Assembly: GCF_003334385.1 (NCBI RefSeq)
Contig: NZ_QOWN01000077.1
Strand: one strand, 5' to 3'
Origin: Escherichia coli
Lineage (GTDB): Bacteria; Pseudomonadota; Gammaproteobacteria; Enterobacterales; Enterobacteriaceae
DNA length: 6,256 bases
This document shows positions 21-6,256 of the stretch, one piece after another; within the stretch, counting starts at the first letter, position 1, and each line of letters starts with the position of its first letter. Made by a program: the position numbers and the translations under genes. The notes beneath the pieces are model-generated. The model did no database searches, was not told where the DNA came from, and saw nothing but the letters and a program-made list of their open reading frames with translations.

Positions 21-75
21 CGGCACGTTAAATCATATCAGGCGTAATACCACAACCCTTAAGTTAGCGCTTATG
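1..75 (-). mobile_element. IS186 (IS4 family) terminal segment; element continues beyond the window start
   Basis: Plus-strand 53-75 caacccttaagttagcgcttatg is the reverse complement of CATAAGCGCTAACTTAAGGGTTG, which I recall as the 23-bp terminal inverted repeat of IS186. On the minus strand an ATG at 20..18 opens MNYSHD, matching the recalled N-terminus of the IS186 transposase InsL. All three plus-strand frames are closed by stops within 1-67, so the flanking cynR frame cannot extend upstream. Identification is from memory, not a database search. Confidence 0.6.
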
Positions 76-341
76 GGCTACATCCACAGGTGGTCATTGA
101 GGCGAACTCAATTAGCGCGGTTCTGGAGCTGATTCGCCGCACTTCCCTTTCCACATTGTTACCAGCAGCGATTGCCACACAACATGACGGGCTTAAAGCT
201 ATTTCTCTTGCCCCGCCACTACTGGAGAGAACGGCGGTTTTGTTGCGGCGGAAAAATAGCTGGCAGACAGCCGCCGCGAAGGCATTTTTGCACATGGCGT
301 TGGATAAATGCGCGGTTGTTGGCGGAAATGAATCACGGTAG
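76..341 (+). pseudogene. cynR: 3' fragment of cynR (LysR-family regulator of the cyanate operon), truncated at the IS186 junction
   Basis: The frame translates ..[86 protein letters not shown] and ends at TAG 339-341, which matches the CynR C-terminus as I recall it. An in-frame TAA at 60-62 lies inside the putative IS inverted repeat, so only about 88 C-terminal codons of a ~299-aa protein remain here. Convergent orientation with codA matches the K-12 codA/cynR arrangement. Confidence 0.75.
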
Positions 342-369
342 CCGCTGACACAGGTCTGCGGCTGGAATT

Positions 370-449
370 GCCTGATGCGCTACGCTTATCAGGCCTACGA
401 GTTCAGTGCTCTACGTAGGCCGGATAAGGCGTTCACGCCGCATCCGGCA
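370..449. repeat. REP pair (BIME-like): gcctgatgcgctacgcttatcaggcctac (370-398) and inverted gtaggccggataaggcgttcacgccgcatccggca (416-449)
   Basis: Classic enterobacterial REP palindromes (GCCTGATGCG...TTATCAGGCCTAC and GCCGGATGCGGCGTGAACGCCTTATCCGGCCTAC families), in inverted orientation. Confidence 0.8.
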
Positions 450-569
450 TAAACTACAGCTGGCAGACAGCCGCTGCGAAGGCATTTTTGCACATGGCGT
501 TGGAGGAATGCGCGGTTGTTGGCGGGAATGAATCACGGTAGCCGCTGACACAGATCAGCGGCTGGAATT

Positions 570-649
570 GCCTGATGCGCTACGCTTATCAGGCCTACGA
601 GTTCAGTGCTCTACGTAGGCCGGATAAGGCGTTCACGCCGCATCCGGCA
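570..649. repeat. Second copy of the REP pair, within tandem-duplication copy 2
   Basis: Same sequences as 370-449 shifted by 200 bp; lies just 3' of the codA stop (678-680) and so is placed to act as the codBA 3' stem-loop or terminator. Confidence 0.8.
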
Positions 650-677
650 TAAACTAAGCTCGCTGTAACCCAGTCGT

Positions 678-1961
678 TCAACGTTTGTAATCGATGGCTT
701 CTGGCTGCTCCAGATATACGGTGGTTTGTGCCGGTTGTGTGCTGGCAATCACCTTGCCGCCACGTACCGAATAACGTACCGGAACCTGACGGCGCAGCGC
801 ATCAAACCCATTTTCAGCCGGCAGGATAATCAGGTTGGCGCTGTTTCCGGCGGCAATGCCGTAATCCTGCAAATTCAACGTCCTTGCGCTGTGGTGGGTG
901 ATTAAATTCAGGCCATCGTTAATCTGCCCGTAGCCCATCAACTGGCAAACATGCAGCCCCATATGCAGCACTTGCAGCATATTCGCCGTTCCCAGCGGAT
1001 ACCACGGATCGAAGACATCATCGTGACCAAAGCAGACGTTAATGCCGGACTCCAGCATCTCTTTAACGCGCGTGATGCCGCGACGTTTTGGATACGTATC
1101 GAAACGTCCTTGCAGATGAATATTGACCAGCGGGTTGGCGACAAAGTTAATACCGGACATTTTCAGCAAGCGGAACAGGCGTGAGGTATACGCCCCGTTA
1201 TAGGAGTGCATTGCCGTGGTGTGGCTGGCGGTGACTCGCGCGCCCATGCCTTCATGGTGCGCCAGGGCAGCAACGGTTTCGACAAAGCGCGACTGCTCGT
1301 CATCGATCTCATCACAGTGAACGTCGATGAGACGGTCGTATTTTTGCGCCAGGGCGAAGGTTTTATGCAGCGACTCCACGCCGTATTCACGGGTAAATTC
1401 AAAATGCGGAATCGCCCCCACTACATCTGCCCCTAAGCGTAACGCCTCTTCCAGCAACGCTTCACCGTTGGGATACGACAAAATCCCTTCCTGAGGGAAG
1501 GCGACGATTTGCAGATCAATCCACGGCGCGACTTCCTGCTTCACTTCCAGCATTGCTTTCAGCGCAGTTAGCGTTGCATCCGAAACATCGACATGGGTAC
1601 GCACATGCTGAATGCCGTTGGCAATCTGCCATTTCAGCGTTTGCCATGCGCGTTGTTTCACATCGTCATGGGTTAATAACGCTTTGCGCTCGGCCCAGCG
1701 TTCAATGCCTTCAAACAGCGTGCCGGACTGATTCCAGTTCGGTTGTCCGGCGGTTTGCGTGGTGTCCAGGTGAATATGTGGCTCCACAAACGGCGGTATA
1801 ACTAAACCTTGTTCGGCATCCAGGCTGTTTTCAGTTATGGGCATCACGCCGGATTGCGCATCAATGGCGCTGATTTTTCCGTCCTGCAGATGAATCTGCC
1901 ACAGCCCCTCTTCGCCTGGTAACCGGGCGTTAATAATTGTTTGTAAAGCGTTATTCGACAC
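678..1961 (-). CDS. codA: Cytosine deaminase (amidohydrolase superfamily), 427 aa, GTG start
   Basis: Translation [38 protein letters not shown]...[10 protein letters not shown] matches E. coli CodA as recalled, with the metal-binding motifs PHIHLD, VHCDE and CFGHDD. The ORF track starts at ATG 1976, but the known protein begins 5 codons later at GTG 1961..1959, preceded by GGAGG (minus-strand ATGTGGAGGCTAACAGTG). Stop TGA at 680..678. Confidence 0.95.
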
Positions 1962-3210
1962 TGTTAGCCTCCACATGCGTCATTGCTGCTGTCGTTTTAC
2001 GATTCAAAATCGGGTTAAGGATCAGATAGCTCAGCGCGCCACCTAATACCGCGTTGACCGGAACAATTCCCGGTAACCAGTGGCCTGCAGCAATCCCCAA
2101 GGCGACCGCCAGAATCGCCACCCAATTGACACTCATCATACGCGTGGTCGCAAAGTGCTCATAGCGGCGACGGTTCATCAGATAGTCGGCGATGATCACG
2201 CCACCCACTGGAGGAATAGCTGCCGAAAGGAAGGTCAACCAGCCGACAAAATTGTTATACAGCCATAATGCGCAGACCGTACCGATAATACCGTTGATTA
2301 CCGAAAGGGTTTTGCTCGACATCCCGGTAATGTTGGCGAAACCTAAACCCGACGCATAGAGTGCGTTATCGTTGGTGGTCCAGATATTCAGCCCCAGCAC
2401 CACAATCGCAGGCAGCAGCAGGCCCTGAGCAATCATCACATCAGAGATATCCGCCATGCCCAGTGCCGCAGCGCCCGCTGCACCGAAAATAAACATCAAC
2501 GAGTTGCCGAGGAAAAAGGCCACCATCGCCACCAGCACCGCCAGTTTGGCATTGCGACCAAACCGGACAAAGTCAGCGGTGAGCGTACCCGCACTGATAA
2601 ATGACCCCACAACCAGCGCCAGCGCGACATTGAAATCTAACGGTTGTGCGGGAACGACCGCTTTTAATGCGTCCAGGCCGCCCATGCCGTTAACAGCCAG
2701 CCACACGGAATAACCGCCCAGGCAGGCGATAGCCGGAACCGCAATCACCGAAAGAACCGTCAGCGCCGAAATGCCAAAAAAGACGGTGACGGTCATCAGT
2801 AAACCGGAAACGGCAATCAGCAAATTAATATCCAGCCCGGTTGCCTTACCCACCGGAATGGCAAACATCGCCACACCGACGCCAAACCAGCCAACCTGAG
2901 TTCCGCCCAGTAGCAGTGAAGGCAGCCATGAGCCTTTAACACCAAACGAGAAGCGAGCAAGAAGATGAGTGGTCAGGCCGGTTTTTGCGCCAATGTAACC
3001 GAGAAATGAAGTGTAAATACCGAGGAGAAGATTACCGATGAGAACTGCGAGGAAGAAATCATGATAGCTAAGACCGGTTCCGAGAGTGCCGCCGGTCCAC
3101 ATACTGGCGGAAAAGAAGGTTAATCCCAGCATGACGAACGTCAATGCCAATACCCCTTTCCGCGCCGACTGCGGGACTGGCCCCTGGCTAAAGTTGTTAT
3201 CTTGCGACAC
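1951..3210 (-). CDS. codB: Cytosine permease (NCS1 family transporter), 419 aa, GTG start
   Basis: Translation [33 protein letters not shown]...THVEANSVE matches E. coli CodB as recalled and is a hydrophobic multi-helix membrane protein. GTG start at 3210..3208 with AAGGGGGA Shine-Dalgarno upstream; stop TAA at 1953..1951 overlaps the codA start by 11 bp. Confidence 0.95.
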
Positions 3211-3276
3211 GAAATTCCCCCTTTTTGCTGTTTGAAACCCAAAAAATCCGCCGCATTCTATTCATCTGAAGATAAA

Positions 3277-3292
3277 AAGCAATCGTTTTCGT
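3277..3292 (-). promoter_or_regulatory. Putative PurR operator (PUR box) of the codBA promoter
   Basis: Minus-strand ACGAAAACGATTGCTT matches the PurR consensus ACGCAAACGTTTGCGT at 13 of 16 positions. It lies about 70-85 bp upstream of the codB GTG, consistent with known purine repression of codBA. Confidence 0.5.
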
Positions 3293-3297
3293 GGGGA

Positions 3298-3325
3298 AAT
3301 ATATTTTTTATATGAATGAGTGCAA
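3298..3325 (-). promoter_or_regulatory. Candidate sigma70 promoter for codBA: -35 TTGCAC (3325..3320), 16-bp spacer, -10 TATATT (3303..3298)
   Basis: Read from the minus strand: TTGCAC TCATTCATATAAAAAA TATATT, placing the transcription start near the PUR box. Motif-level prediction only. Confidence 0.3.
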
Positions 3326-3362
3326 AAAGGTGGGGGAAAAATTATCGGTGTAAAAACAGTGG

Positions 3363-3543
3363 GTAGGCCTGATAAGACGCGTCAGCGTCGCATCAGGCAT
3401 CTGAGCATGGTGTCGGATGCGACGCGAGCGCCTTATCCGACCTACGGTTCAGGTCCGTAGGCATGATAAAACGCGTCAGCGTCGCATCAGGCATCGGCAC
3501 ACAGTGCCGGATGCACCGCGCGACGCATCCGACAATAACCTAC
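3363..3543. repeat. BIME cluster of four REP elements in alternating orientation (3363-3399, 3411-3445, 3458-3494, 3506-3543)
   Basis: gtaggcctgataagacgcgtcagcgtcgcatcaggca, tgtcggatgcgacgcgagcgccttatccgacctac, gtaggcatgataaaacgcgtcagcgtcgcatcaggca and gccggatgcaccgcgcgacgcatccgacaataacctac form two ~95-bp units. The last REP overlaps the stop codon of the upstream ORF (TAG at 3542..3540). Confidence 0.8.
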
Positions 3544-3812
3544 TCTTCCATCGCCTGGCGGATCTGATCCAACGACGCAGGATCATCAATGGTCGTCAGA
3601 TCTCCAGGATCGCGTCCTTCGCAAATCGCCTGGATCGTGCGGCGCAGCATTTTTCCGGATCGCGTTTTTGGCAATTGCGAGACAAACCAGACGTGCGCCG
3701 GGCGGCCAAAGTTGCCAATCTGGCTGTCCACCAGCGCCATAATCGCCTTCTCTTGCGAGTGCGCCACATCACGATCTTCCAGACTGTCGCTCTCTTTCGG
3801 AATGACAAACGC
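3540..3812 (-). pseudogene. prpE: 3' remnant of prpE (last ~89-92 codons plus native stop), fused to yahJ
   Basis: Acyl-CoA synthetase C-terminal signature LPKTRSGKMLRR, and a position immediately upstream of codB separated only by the REP cluster, as for prpE-codB in K-12. The junction is inferred near 3805-3830 (protein ..DASCSAEAVA / FVIPKESD..). Confidence 0.75.
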
Positions 3813-5126
3813 CACCGCCTCGGCGGAACAGGAGGCGTCCACCAGCACAAAGCTGGCGTCATCCTGCGCTTTTGGCCATACACGCTCGCCTTTTTCATTC
3901 AGCGGCAATACATCGCCAGTGGCTAAAAACAGCGAGCGGGAGAGGTTCTGTTCGTTAGGACGAATATAGAGCTGCGCGTACAGATTGGCTTTTTCCAGCA
4001 TGTCGCCCAGACCATAAGGCGACCAGTGGTCGATAACGCTGTCAGTGCCAGTCATCACTTTTACGCCTTTGTCGTGCAACTGTTTGAGCGGCATATGCAG
4101 CGTGCCAATCGGCACCGTCGAGGCGATAGAAATTTGTTGCACCACCATCCGGTTCGCCAGTTCATCTACCTGTTGCTCGTTGAGCGTTGCCAGCGCAAAG
4201 GCGTGACTGATGGTCAGCTTGCCCTTCAGCTGTGGCGTTTTCTCTACCGTTTCAACCATATAATTGATGGCTGCCACGCCTGCCGGAGTGGTTTCGTGCA
4301 GGTGAATATCGACGCCTTTGTCGTAGTCCAGCGCAATCTGGAACATGGTGTCGAGGGATTTTTCCATCGCGCCATCAACACTGGTCGGGTCCAGGCCGCC
4401 GACGTAATGCGCCCCCGCCTGCATCGCTTCACGCATTAAAGGTTCAGATTTCGACAGCAGCAAACCGTGCTGCGGGAAGGCGACGATTTCACACTCAAAG
4501 CCCGCCTGACGTCGCGCCAGCACCGCCTGCAAATTTTGCAGATTTTTCAGGCCGGAAACCGGTTCGATATTGCAGTGGCTGCGGGCAATGGTGGTGCCTT
4601 TCGACTGCAATAAATCAATCAGTTTTTCTGCCCGCTCCTGAGTGTACGGTTGCAGTTCCGGCAGCATTTTCTGCTCGAGTTTGATCATGTCCTGGATGGT
4701 GGTGCCTGCCGGACGATTGAGCGAGCGCCACGGCCCGCCGTAAAAGGTTTTGTCGAGATGAATATGCATGTCGCGGGTGGTGGGCAGCATCAGCTTACCG
4801 CCAGCGTCATAGTGCGGCAGCGTGGCGTCCGGATGCAGCTTGTTCTCGCGCAGGGCGACAATTTTGCCGTCCTGAATCTCCACGGTCTGGCGCGCCGTGC
4901 GGGTCTGCACCGCCACGCCATTTTCGTAGTCAAAACCGGTTTCCAGCAGCACGTTATCGAGATAGTAATGCGGGTCAGTGATTTTCATGGTGTTGTTCGC
5001 TTCGCAGTTTAGGGTGCCAGCTACCGCCGCATGGGCGAGCGGCACAGAGGTACCAAACAGCGCGGCGGCGGTGACCATCTTACCGCTCTGGCTCAGAAAT
5101 TCACGGCGGCTATTGCTTTCTTTCAT
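3540..5126 (-). CDS. yahJ: Chimeric ORF, 528 aa: Tat-signal amidohydrolase (YahJ-like putative deaminase, ~439 aa) fused in frame to the C-terminal 89 aa of propionyl-CoA synthetase PrpE
   Basis: N-terminus MKESNSRREFLSQSGKMVTAAALFGTSVPLAHA carries a twin-arginine motif (SRREFL). The body has amidohydrolase motifs DMHIHLD, DIHLHET and GTDSVIDHW. The C-terminus FVIPKESDSLEDRDVAHSQEKAIMALVDSQIGNFGRPAHVWFVSQLPKTRSGKMLRRTIQAICEGRDPGDLTTIDDPASLDQIRQAMEE contains the acyl-CoA synthetase PKTRSGK motif and matches the PrpE C-terminus as recalled. ATG at 5126..5124 with AAGGA upstream. Confidence 0.8.
   Translation of the reverse strand: MKESNSRREFLSQSGKMVTAAALFGTSVPLAHAAVAGTLNCEANNTMKITDPHYYLDNVLLETGFDYENGVAVQTRTARQTVEIQDGKIVALRENKLHPDATLPHYDAGGKLMLPTTRDMHIHLDKTFYGGPWRSLNRPAGTTIQDMIKLEQKMLPELQPYTQERAEKLIDLLQSKGTTIARSHCNIEPVSGLKNLQNLQAVLARRQAGFECEIVAFPQHGLLLSKSEPLMREAMQAGAHYVGGLDPTSVDGAMEKSLDTMFQIALDYDKGVDIHLHETTPAGVAAINYMVETVEKTPQLKGKLTISHAFALATLNEQQVDELANRMVVQQISIASTVPIGTLHMPLKQLHDKGVKVMTGTDSVIDHWSPYGLGDMLEKANLYAQLYIRPNEQNLSRSLFLATGDVLPLNEKGERVWPKAQDDASFVLVDASCSAEAVAFVIPKESDSLEDRDVAHSQEKAIMALVDSQIGNFGRPAHVWFVSQLPKTRSGKMLRRTIQAICEGRDPGDLTTIDDPASLDQIRQAMEE
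5028..5126 (-). other. Predicted Tat (twin-arginine) signal peptide of the YahJ-like protein, ~33 aa, likely cleaved after AHA
   Basis: S-R-R-E-F-L motif followed by a hydrophobic stretch VTAAALFGTSVPL and an AxA site (AHA|AVAG). Confidence 0.55.
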
Positions 5127-5135
5127 CTTACGTCC

Positions 5136-6086
5136 TTACGTTTTAATAATATGAGTGCCCGTTTCGCCGCGCAGCGCCGCAGGCAGGCATTCCGGCGTGG
5201 TGATAATCACTTCTTTGCCGCCTTGTTCTAAAAATGTCAGGCTGGCGATGATTTTTGGCAACATGCTGCCGGGCGGGAAATGCCCTTCCTGCATATAGCG
5301 GGTCATGGTGGCAATATCCACCCGATCGAGCGCCTGCTGCTGCGGTTTGCCAAAGTGAATACACACTTTTTCGACGCCAGTGGTGATCACAAGAATGTCG
5401 GCGTGAATTTCACGGGCCAGCAGCGCGGTAGAGAGATCTTTGTCGATAACCGCGTCCACGCTTTGGTAATCTCCCGCGTCAGTACGCACTACCGGAATTC
5501 CACCGCCGCCCGCGCCAATTACGACAAAACCTTGTTGGATCAGCGCTTTAATGGCAGGTGCTTCGACAATACGTTTCGGTTCCGGCGAGGCGACCACGCG
5601 GCGATAGCCCCGCCCGGCATCTTCAACAAAACACCAGTCAGGGTTTGCCTTTTGTAATTCGTCACGCTGGCTGTCACTAAAGAATGCGCCGATGGGCTTG
5701 GTGGGATGGGCAAAACCTGGATCGTTTTTATCCACTTCCACCTGAGTCACCACGGTGACGGCTTTCTTCTCGCCGTGACGCGCCAGCCGGTTATTCAGCG
5801 CCTGTTGGATCAGATAGCCGATGCCGCCCTGCGTATCTGCCACACAGTTCGCCAGCGGCGTTAAGGGCAGCCCTTCGCGCTTGTGGGCAATCTCCGCACG
5901 GCGTAAATCCAGCCCGACCTGCGGCCCGTTGCCGTGGGTCAGCACAATGTCGTAATCGGAAGCCAGCATTTCCAGCACCGTATCGGCGACGGCTTTCACC
6001 GCCTCCGCCTGATGCTCAATCGACTGGCTGGCGTTATCTTTGATAATGCTGTTGCCACCAATGGCAACGACCACAAGCTCTTTCAT
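5136..6086 (-). CDS. yahI: Carbamate kinase-like protein (amino acid kinase family), 316 aa
   Basis: Translation MKELVVVAIGGNSI...LTHGNGPQVG...VIGAGGGGIPV... carries carbamate kinase / amino-acid-kinase signatures and matches E. coli YahI as recalled. Stop TAA at 5138..5136 lies 9 bp upstream of the yahJ ATG, suggesting an operon. Confidence 0.9.
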   Translation of the reverse strand: MKELVVVAIGGNSIIKDNASQSIEHQAEAVKAVADTVLEMLASDYDIVLTHGNGPQVGLDLRRAEIAHKREGLPLTPLANCVADTQGGIGYLIQQALNNRLARHGEKKAVTVVTQVEVDKNDPGFAHPTKPIGAFFSDSQRDELQKANPDWCFVEDAGRGYRRVVASPEPKRIVEAPAIKALIQQGFVVIGAGGGGIPVVRTDAGDYQSVDAVIDKDLSTALLAREIHADILVITTGVEKVCIHFGKPQQQALDRVDIATMTRYMQEGHFPPGSMLPKIIASLTFLEQGGKEVIITTPECLPAALRGETGTHIIKT

Positions 6087-6136
6087 GTTGTTATGTCCGC
6101 TACAGAGGGTGATGGGGTTATGACCAACGCCAGACT

Positions 6137-6256
6137 GCCTGATGCGCTACGCTTATCAGGCCTACAATTCTCGCGCCACTCGTAGGCCGGATAAGGCGTT
6201 CACGCCGCATCCGGCAATGGTGACAAATGCCTGATGCGCTACGCTTATCAGGCCTA
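6137..6256. repeat. BIME/REP cluster of at least three REPs (6137-6165, 6182-6216, 6229-6256), running off the window end
   Basis: gcctgatgcgctacgcttatcaggcctac, inverted gtaggccggataaggcgttcacgccgcatccggca, then gcctgatgcgctacgcttatcaggccta; the same REP family as at 370-449. Confidence 0.8.

Follow-up and report, generated by a model that had tools for sequence, protein, structure and literature searches.

The stretch of DNA considered here (hereafter the window) comprises 6,256 bp of Escherichia coli and represents the entire contig QOWN01000077.1 of the draft genome GCA_003334385.1, in reverse orientation and with repeats at both ends. Its subject is a pair of adjacent minus-strand genes: yahI (5136–6086), whose 316-aa product in the open reading frame (ORF) list is identical to K-12 YahI, and an ORF of 528 aa (3540–5126) that begins as yahJ and lies upstream of the cytosine salvage genes codB and codA. 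A sequence-only reading of this DNA, which had the boundaries of both ORFs exactly right, took them for a catabolic module consisting of a carbamate kinase and an amidohydrolase exported by the twin-arginine translocation (Tat) pathway. By its sequence yahI is an intact carbamate kinase paralog gene: YahI reaches 649 bits with the NCBIfam carbamate kinase subfamily model NF009007 (cutoff 266) and 346, just below the cutoff of 358, with the arcC equivalog TIGR00746.

The coupling of the two genes that this reading proposed is borne out by the sequence. From the yahI stop TAA (5138–5136) to the next ATG (5126–5124) there are exactly 9 nt on the minus strand (5127–5135, read from the sequence), and a Shine-Dalgarno sequence AAGGA (5137–5133) overlaps the yahI stop and leaves 6 nt to the ATG. 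K-12 yahI (b0323) and yahJ (b0324) agree with the window in the 9-nt gap and in the Tat signal, and the window is 100% identical to them over yahI and yahJ codons 1–439. We also found database proteins in which YahI and YahJ are fused (AA_kinase plus amidohydrolase), namely P0017, P0018 and P0019 (779–780 aa) and P0022 (677 aa), 97–98% identical to YahJ; presumably the yahI stop codon was lost so that the frame runs on through the 9-nt gap, or else these are sequencing errors.

Origin of the yahJ-prpE hybrid

Two segments of the window, 75–3819 and 3810–6256, are each 100% identical to K-12 MG1655; they overlap by 10 bases and their K-12 positions are 11,881 bp apart. The overlap (3810–3819) is the sole remaining copy of a 10-bp direct repeat, CGCCACCGCC, of which the K-12 locus (L001) carries one copy in prpE (5120–5129) and one in yahJ near its 3' end (17001–17010). 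Lost in the deletion are 66 nt of yahJ, the genes yahK, yahL, yahM, yahN, yahO, prpR, prpB, prpC and prpD, and codons 1–539 of prpE. The 528-aa ORF consists of YahJ residues 1–439 (3810–5126, minus strand, 100% identical to K-12 yahJ) followed in frame by PrpE residues 540–628, encoded by the last 89 codons of prpE with its stop (3540–3809, minus strand, 100% identical to K-12 prpE). Native YahJ has 460 aa; relative to K-12, the last 21 codons of yahJ have given way to 89 prpE codons, and yahK through prpD are gone. The match to the PrpE C-terminus takes in the final 92 residues of the ORF, 3 of which are common to YahJ through the microhomology. The ORF at 3540–5126 is, practically beyond doubt, a hybrid created by an 11,881-bp deletion between the two copies of the repeat.

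Domain content agrees with this composition. Pfam places amidohydrolase domains (Amidohydro_3 and Amidohydro_1) in the yahJ part, which encodes an amidohydrolase of the AtzC/CodA class, and then AMP-binding_C at residues 437–492 (E = 1e-8), a match that covers model positions 29–76 of 76 only; the AMP-binding domain is absent from the ORF. The product does not qualify as PrpE, of which only residues 540–628 are left, with an incomplete C-terminal subdomain. Nor is it an intact YahJ ortholog: signal peptide and catalytic core are identical, but the length and the C-terminus ...AEAVARISPRxATFHxGxxVWG are not those of YahJ. The PrpE tail retains the motif PKTRSGK, whose lysine we take to be the catalytic, acetylated residue of acyl-CoA synthetases, and to which we attach no functional meaning here.

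A short direct repeat of which one copy is kept is the usual signature of microhomology-mediated deletion, by replication slippage or illegitimate recombination, and no mobile element lies at the junction. Nine 10-mers and one 11-mer, but no 12-mers, are common to yahJ and prpE, and CGCCACCGCC thus ranks among the longest repeats that were available. The event is a typical example of the bacterial gene fusions that arise in this way, which likewise have a repeat at both ends, retain one copy and yield an in-frame hybrid. Since one third of random joins are expected to be in frame, the reading frame by itself is no evidence of selection.

The sequence-only reading had treated yahJ as an intact gene ending at 3540 and never stated the fusion, even if its wording ("YahJ portion", "YahJ body", "now sit") may indicate that the fusion was sensed; only residues 1–439 are YahJ. 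The GenBank name of the 528-aa protein is "amidohydrolase family protein". The lesson for annotation is that a protein with this name can be a truncated YahJ with a PrpE tail, whose position beside codBA says nothing of its function. The deletion should also have left isolates with the chimera without the methylcitrate pathway for propionate, so that this lineage would be unable to catabolise propionate.

The YahJ protein and the fate of the hybrid

YahJ is homologous to CodA (323 aa aligned at 26% identity, E = 8e-22), and the common motif pattern that the sequence-only reading saw in them holds, with DMHIHLD of YahJ aligning with EPHIHLD of CodA and GTDSVIDHW with GHDDVFDPW. A single metal site is indicated by H121, H123, H275 and D362 together with H308 and Q219, all of which align with CodA and are invariant or nearly so in a 67-sequence family alignment. 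CodA shares with YahJ the fold, the metal centre and the aligned HxH, FPQxG, SH and D-x-V-x-D-x-W motifs, and differs in its low identity and in having no N-terminal signal-peptide extension. The profile searches and structure prediction against CodA that had been suggested led away from cytosine deaminase. YahJ fails all NCBIfam cytosine deaminase models (NF005748, 101 against a cutoff of 438; NF006685, 81 against 483; NF005759, 67 against 403) and passes only the model of its own subfamily, NF005312 "amidohydrolase" (713 bits, cutoff 447). A sequence search of the Protein Data Bank (PDB) finds AtzC-type enzymes nearest (6nbo at E = 2e-43, AtzC at about 5e-30, cytosine deaminases at 1e-16 to 1e-20), and in a fold search the template modelling score normalised to the target is 0.84–0.89 for AtzC-type and 0.74–0.78 for CodA-type structures.

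For a map of the active site we carried the residues of AtzC (PMC4577212) over to YahJ through the PDB sequence alignment. The metal ligands of YahJ would be H121, H123, H275 and D362, and its essential histidine H308 (AtzC His249). The AtzC contacts Lys65, Gln160, His219 and Trp309 correspond to K126, Q219, H277 and W368, and Asn304 corresponds to Ser363, so that four of the five contacts are kept at an overall identity of 22–29%. Thr66 and Asp314 of CodA have been given as its active-site differences from AtzC (PMC4577212); at these positions YahJ has K126 and S363. AtzC (N-isopropylammelide isopropylaminohydrolase; subtype III, single-metal; PDB 2qt3 and 4cqb, with 6nbo annotated as AtzC) is the best match of YahJ in both sequence and fold, but it differs in that low identity, in Asn304 where YahJ has Ser363, and in the Glu (E278) that follows the His in YahJ. 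These comparisons set YahJ nearer to the AtzC-type ring hydrolases than to cytosine deaminase; its pocket, matching neither cytosine nor ammelide specificity exactly, suggests a planar carbonyl-bearing N-heterocycle as substrate.

The N-terminus of YahJ, MKESNSRREFLSQSGKMVTAAALFGTSVPLAHA (codons 1–33; 5028–5126, minus strand), is a predicted Tat signal with SRREFL at residues 6–11, the hydrophobic stretch MVTAAALFGTSVPL and AHA at 31–33. All of the 20 orthologs compared have R7, R8, F10 and L11, and in a structural model of YahJ residues 1–48 are disordered and the fold starts near residue 53. A Tat-type signal is present in about 6 of 86 near-full-length cluster representatives of the family; it is missing from most relatives, which are about 400 aa long, and AtzC likewise lacks a signal peptide, unlike YahJ. 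One genome (GCA_004348885.1; 37% guanine plus cytosine (GC); L014, 7374–11438) carries a 51%-identical homolog with an SRRRFI motif directly upstream of tatA and tatC, preceded divergently by a gene of the xanthine/uracil permease family (Xan_ur_permease). That this homolog lies beside its own tatA and tatC and a permease supports, at the level of gene context, real Tat export of YahJ and a nucleobase-like substrate. The Tat signal noted by the sequence-only reading is thus present and invariant, but it was not new: YahJ stands in published lists of Tat substrates as a protein of unknown function (PMC7549933; PMC3027627), where the same peptide is the predicted Tat signal (PMC7549933). Deletion of yahJ gave a mild competitive defect in a mouse model of extraintestinal pathogenic E. 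coli (competitive index 0.70, p = 0.02; PMC7549933; PMC3027627). For experimental Tat data on the YahJ signal, our literature searches gave only prediction lists and this one virulence competition assay.

The deletion breaks YahJ inside an invariant block, ...VDASCSAEAVA|RISPR..., common to 20 orthologs whose range extends from Escherichia to Aeromonas and Shewanella (70–97% identity). Seven of the 21 residues lost are invariant in these orthologs (R440, I441, S442, P443, R444, F448 and G451), and G451 is at least 90% conserved in the 67-sequence alignment, which reaches down to CodA. A model of native YahJ built from the 20 close orthologs was unusable, with a mean predicted local distance difference test score (pLDDT) of 58 and values below 50 in the C-terminal 100 residues; the 67-sequence alignment was used instead and gave a mean pLDDT of 92 and a predicted template modelling score of 0.88. 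In this model a helix (434–440) directly precedes two terminal beta-strands (444–449 and 452–456, pLDDT 95–98). The PDB homolog 6nbo aligns up to YahJ residue 454, and in a pairwise alignment the lost segment corresponds to the C-terminal strand region of CodA. Because conserved core strands are lost and an incomplete ANL C-terminal subdomain stands in their place, the model points to a chimera that is most likely misfolded and catalytically dead. The Tat pathway exports folded cargo only, so that the chimera would probably be degraded rather than exported; that it is neither exported nor active appears to us fairly probable.

A chimera that still works as an exported enzyme, or to which the PrpE tail has lent a new property, so that the deletion was neutral or beneficial to YahJ function, is the least improbable of the alternatives, though we consider it unlikely. 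The signal peptide and all metal-binding and catalytic residues are kept (H121, H123, K126, Q219, H275, H277, E278, H308, D362 and W368 all lie in the yahJ part), which weighs against inactivity, and the hybrid may have residual activity. Its in-frame fusion persists in several isolates, and the PrpE piece opens with a beta-strand-like AFVIPK. However, two core strands and the seven invariant residues have been lost, the orthologs are almost all 455–467 aa long with the native C-terminus, PrpE contributes no more than the end of a subdomain, and Tat quality control rejects misfolded cargo; in-frame joining, as said above, is no sign of selection. We give even less weight to an assembly artefact, a false contig join across a short repeat in a draft genome. 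The contig is short, is bounded by repeats and is joined on a repeated 10-mer, but the identical junction is found in GCA_002190145.1, on a 38.6-kb contig, and in the independently assembled run ERR1948963, with 100% identity wherever the window was overlapped, and the exact 528-aa protein has four separate NCBI accessions. Counting GCA_003334385.1, the junction thus occurs in no fewer than three assemblies, of drafts or runs, that are independent of one another. Assembler word lengths are typically greater than 10 bp, and a 10-bp repeat falls below them. This explanation is the least credible of all.

The sequence-only reading had pointed to the position beside the cytosine salvage genes and to two cytosine-deaminase-like paralogs about 1.6 kb apart. 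An intact YahJ deaminase evolved beside codBA, in a functional pairing of two such enzymes with cytosine salvage, would account for their homology, for the shared metal-ligand pattern and for the 1,578 bp that separate the stop of the chimera (3540) from the start of codA (1961). Homology and distance both stand, but about 13.7 kb separates the two amidohydrolase genes in K-12, where, as in over 90% of complete E. coli genomes, yahK-prpE lie between yahJ and codBA. No complete genome among 5,426 contains window positions 3200–5200 in one piece, while 4,967 have the ancestral sequence across the yahJ breakpoint and 5,223 that across the prpE breakpoint. No cod genes were called within 10 kb either side of yahJ in Citrobacter, Serratia, Aeromonas, Raoultella or Pragia. 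With an ORF truncated and tailed by PrpE, failing the cytosine deaminase models and nearer to AtzC, the pairing is very hard to maintain. The chimera lies near codBA because of a rare 11.9-kb deletion, and its closeness to codA is the scar of one small lineage, not a designed arrangement. Taken jointly, the deletion and its chimera, the probable inactivity and non-export of that protein, and an ancestral yah module form what we hold, with good confidence, to be the best explanation of the locus.

The ancestral yah cluster

The Tat signal and the family membership of YahJ were already known, and the interest of the locus comes mainly from comparison of the yah cluster rather than from the window. 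The module of ureide or oxamate type proposed by the sequence-only reading is upheld for the ancestral locus, in which YahE, YahF, YahG and YahI are paralogs of AllH, AllF, AllG and AllK (YbcF), with identities of 25%, 38%, 45% and 38%, respectively. Pfam detects AllH, HMA_AllF_N and AllG, followed by AA_kinase, both in K-12 and on the deletion lineage's 38.6-kb contig; only yahI of this set is in the window. AllFGH was described as oxamic transcarbamylase in 2024 (PMC11326118). Like the yah genes, AllFGH and AllK, which form the oxamate branch when E. coli breaks down allantoin anaerobically (PMC11326118), combine a three-subunit enzyme with a linked carbamate kinase. The gene order is H-F-G-kinase in yah and F-G-H-kinase in all; the yah cluster further includes an ankyrin protein, an amidohydrolase with a Tat signal and, beyond E. 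coli, a membrane protein of 516 aa, and allantoin genes are not adjacent to it. An operon yahDEFGIJ has been proposed from ribosome footprinting in enterohaemorrhagic E. coli (PMC4765031), and yahI and yahJ were still listed in the uncharacterised y-ome of E. coli in 2024 (PMC11551758). Our literature search found no published function for the yah cluster and no biochemical data on YahEFG, and the allFGH paper does not discuss the yah genes or paralogs (PMC11326118).

Citrobacter and Serratia share the order LysR regulator, ankyrin protein YahD, AllH, AllF, AllG, 516-aa membrane protein, carbamate kinase and YahJ; Aeromonas has the same order with no AllH gene called. Linkage is kept down to 35% YahJ identity, on a contig (L016) whose Tat-bearing YahJ is accompanied by the membrane protein (70%), a YahD-like ankyrin protein (38%), AllH, AllF (59%), AllG (73%) and the kinase (41%), with a PucR-type regulator beside the cluster. 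The multi-pass membrane protein, of 511–516 aa (L009 7461–9011, L008 6942–8492, L006 7300–8847, L016 1228–2763; 70–91% identity), is encoded in Citrobacter, Serratia, Aeromonas and this distant contig and is absent in E. coli and Raoultella. It has no significant Pfam, no NCBIfam and no PDB sequence match (E up to 1), and by sequence comparison it is unlike YbbY, AllW and the NCS2 permease of L014. The absence of this conserved gene from E. coli makes Citrobacter or Serratia preferable to K-12 for study of the pathway.

A likely scheme uniting these genes would begin with YahJ binding its metal and folding in the cytoplasm before Tat export; in the periplasm it would act by hydrolysis on an exogenous, planar N-heterocycle, taking off an amino or alkylamino group. 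The product would enter the cell and become an N-carbamoyl compound, which the AllFGH-like YahEFG would cleave with phosphate to give carbamoyl phosphate, and YahI would turn the latter into ATP, ammonia and CO2. We put forward only tentatively, and with more doubt than conviction, that the seven-gene cluster encodes an undescribed pathway of this kind, composed of a periplasmic AtzC-like hydrolase, a second AllFGH-type transcarbamylase whose substrate is not oxalurate, and YahI, the E. coli copy being a permease-less relic. If true, relic status would explain why the function of yah in K-12 has never been found. The cluster in any case duplicates the oxamic transcarbamylase and carbamate kinase set and joins it to a Tat-signal AtzC-like hydrolase and an ankyrin protein, which provides a testable frame.

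Several observations weigh against such a pathway. YahJ homologs occur without AllFGH-like and kinase genes in Pragia, in Shewanella and in the low-GC genome of L014, and YahJ may have a role of its own; in Pragia and on a soil metagenome contig it is accompanied by no more than YahD and LysR, and in Shewanella by none of these cluster genes. No gene of the cluster is an obvious candidate for opening a ring to yield an N-carbamoyl compound, and the tie between a periplasmic YahJ and the cytoplasmic YahEFG and YahI would be through gene linkage only. The 35-kb K-12 locus holds no trace of the 516-aa gene, and between yahG and yahI there is only the "yahH" region, filled with repetitive extragenic palindromic (REP) elements; even the intact E. 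coli cluster may provide no working pathway.

YahD accompanies YahJ also where AllFGH-like and kinase genes are missing (its loci are L011 9010–9615, L013 2976–3611, L016 2783–4039 and L001 23557–24162; the L016 protein has an extra C-terminal extension of about 220 residues), and a role as partner of YahJ, or as its export chaperone, is conceivable. At the sequence level, decay of the yah cluster shows itself to be independent across genomes. Strain E308 (L005 35924–38400) has a yahI without its N-terminus and a yahG with an internal stop; Raoultella (L010 7511–8919) has a frameshifted allG-like gene that matches in two overlapping pieces in different frames; and strain E423 (NZ_CM173464.1) carries ISApl1 inside yahJ.

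Flanks of the locus

Downstream of the hybrid the window follows K-12 at 100% identity through the native prpE-codB intergenic region (3211–3539, minus strand), with REP elements and the codB upstream region, then codB, encoding cytosine permease (1951–3210, minus strand), and codA, encoding cytosine/isoguanine deaminase (678–1961, minus strand), both identified by annotation. The ORF list and comparison with K-12 place a 3' fragment of cynR on the plus strand in the left part of the window. Positions 1–74, at the contig end, do not match K-12 cynR and are the terminal 74 bp of an IS421 (IS4-like) insertion sequence (IS) in that gene. At its other end (6087–6256) the contig runs into the REP array ("yahH") that separates yahI from yahG; positions 6136–6256 align with several tandem copies in K-12.

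The junction of IS421 and cynR (74/75) is found at 100% in five complete genomes (E308, AMSCJX03, EC416, 20AR0300 and MEI4BO-21). In E308 the element has 1,338 bp and an 11-bp target-site duplication, GGGCTACATCC; this genome retains yahK-prpE, so that the insertion is common to genomes without the deletion. The 100% identity of both arms to MG1655 had raised the suspicion of a K-12 laboratory deletion construct. We rejected this idea because the IS421-cynR junction occurs in chicken, panda, pig, human and soil isolates and the chimera in several assemblies of field isolates.

Two REP-type palindromes are visible in the prpE-codB spacer. Rfam matches to naRNA4 (RF02564), a REP-derived family, lie at 3366–3442 on the minus strand and at 6185–6254 on the plus strand (71.6 and 78 bits, gathering score 59.5), and both fall on REP elements, in this spacer and in the "yahH" array. 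A promoter and terminator scan of 3150–6256 gave counts at chance level (2 against 1.8 expected and 6 against 4.1 expected), and two "terminators" called at 3810–3826 are merely the GC-rich junction repeat. Plus-strand ORFs, for example 3417–3926 and 4026–4439, are taken as antisense by-products of GC-rich coding sequence. Between cynR and codA (258–660) a 200-bp unit, which includes the end of cynR along with a REP-like segment, is present in two tandem copies with 96% matches and is also duplicated in K-12. The mechanical ORF for codA extends to an in-frame ATG upstream (extra 1962–1976), giving 432 aa beginning MWRLTVSNN, whereas RefSeq starts five codons later with 427 aa.

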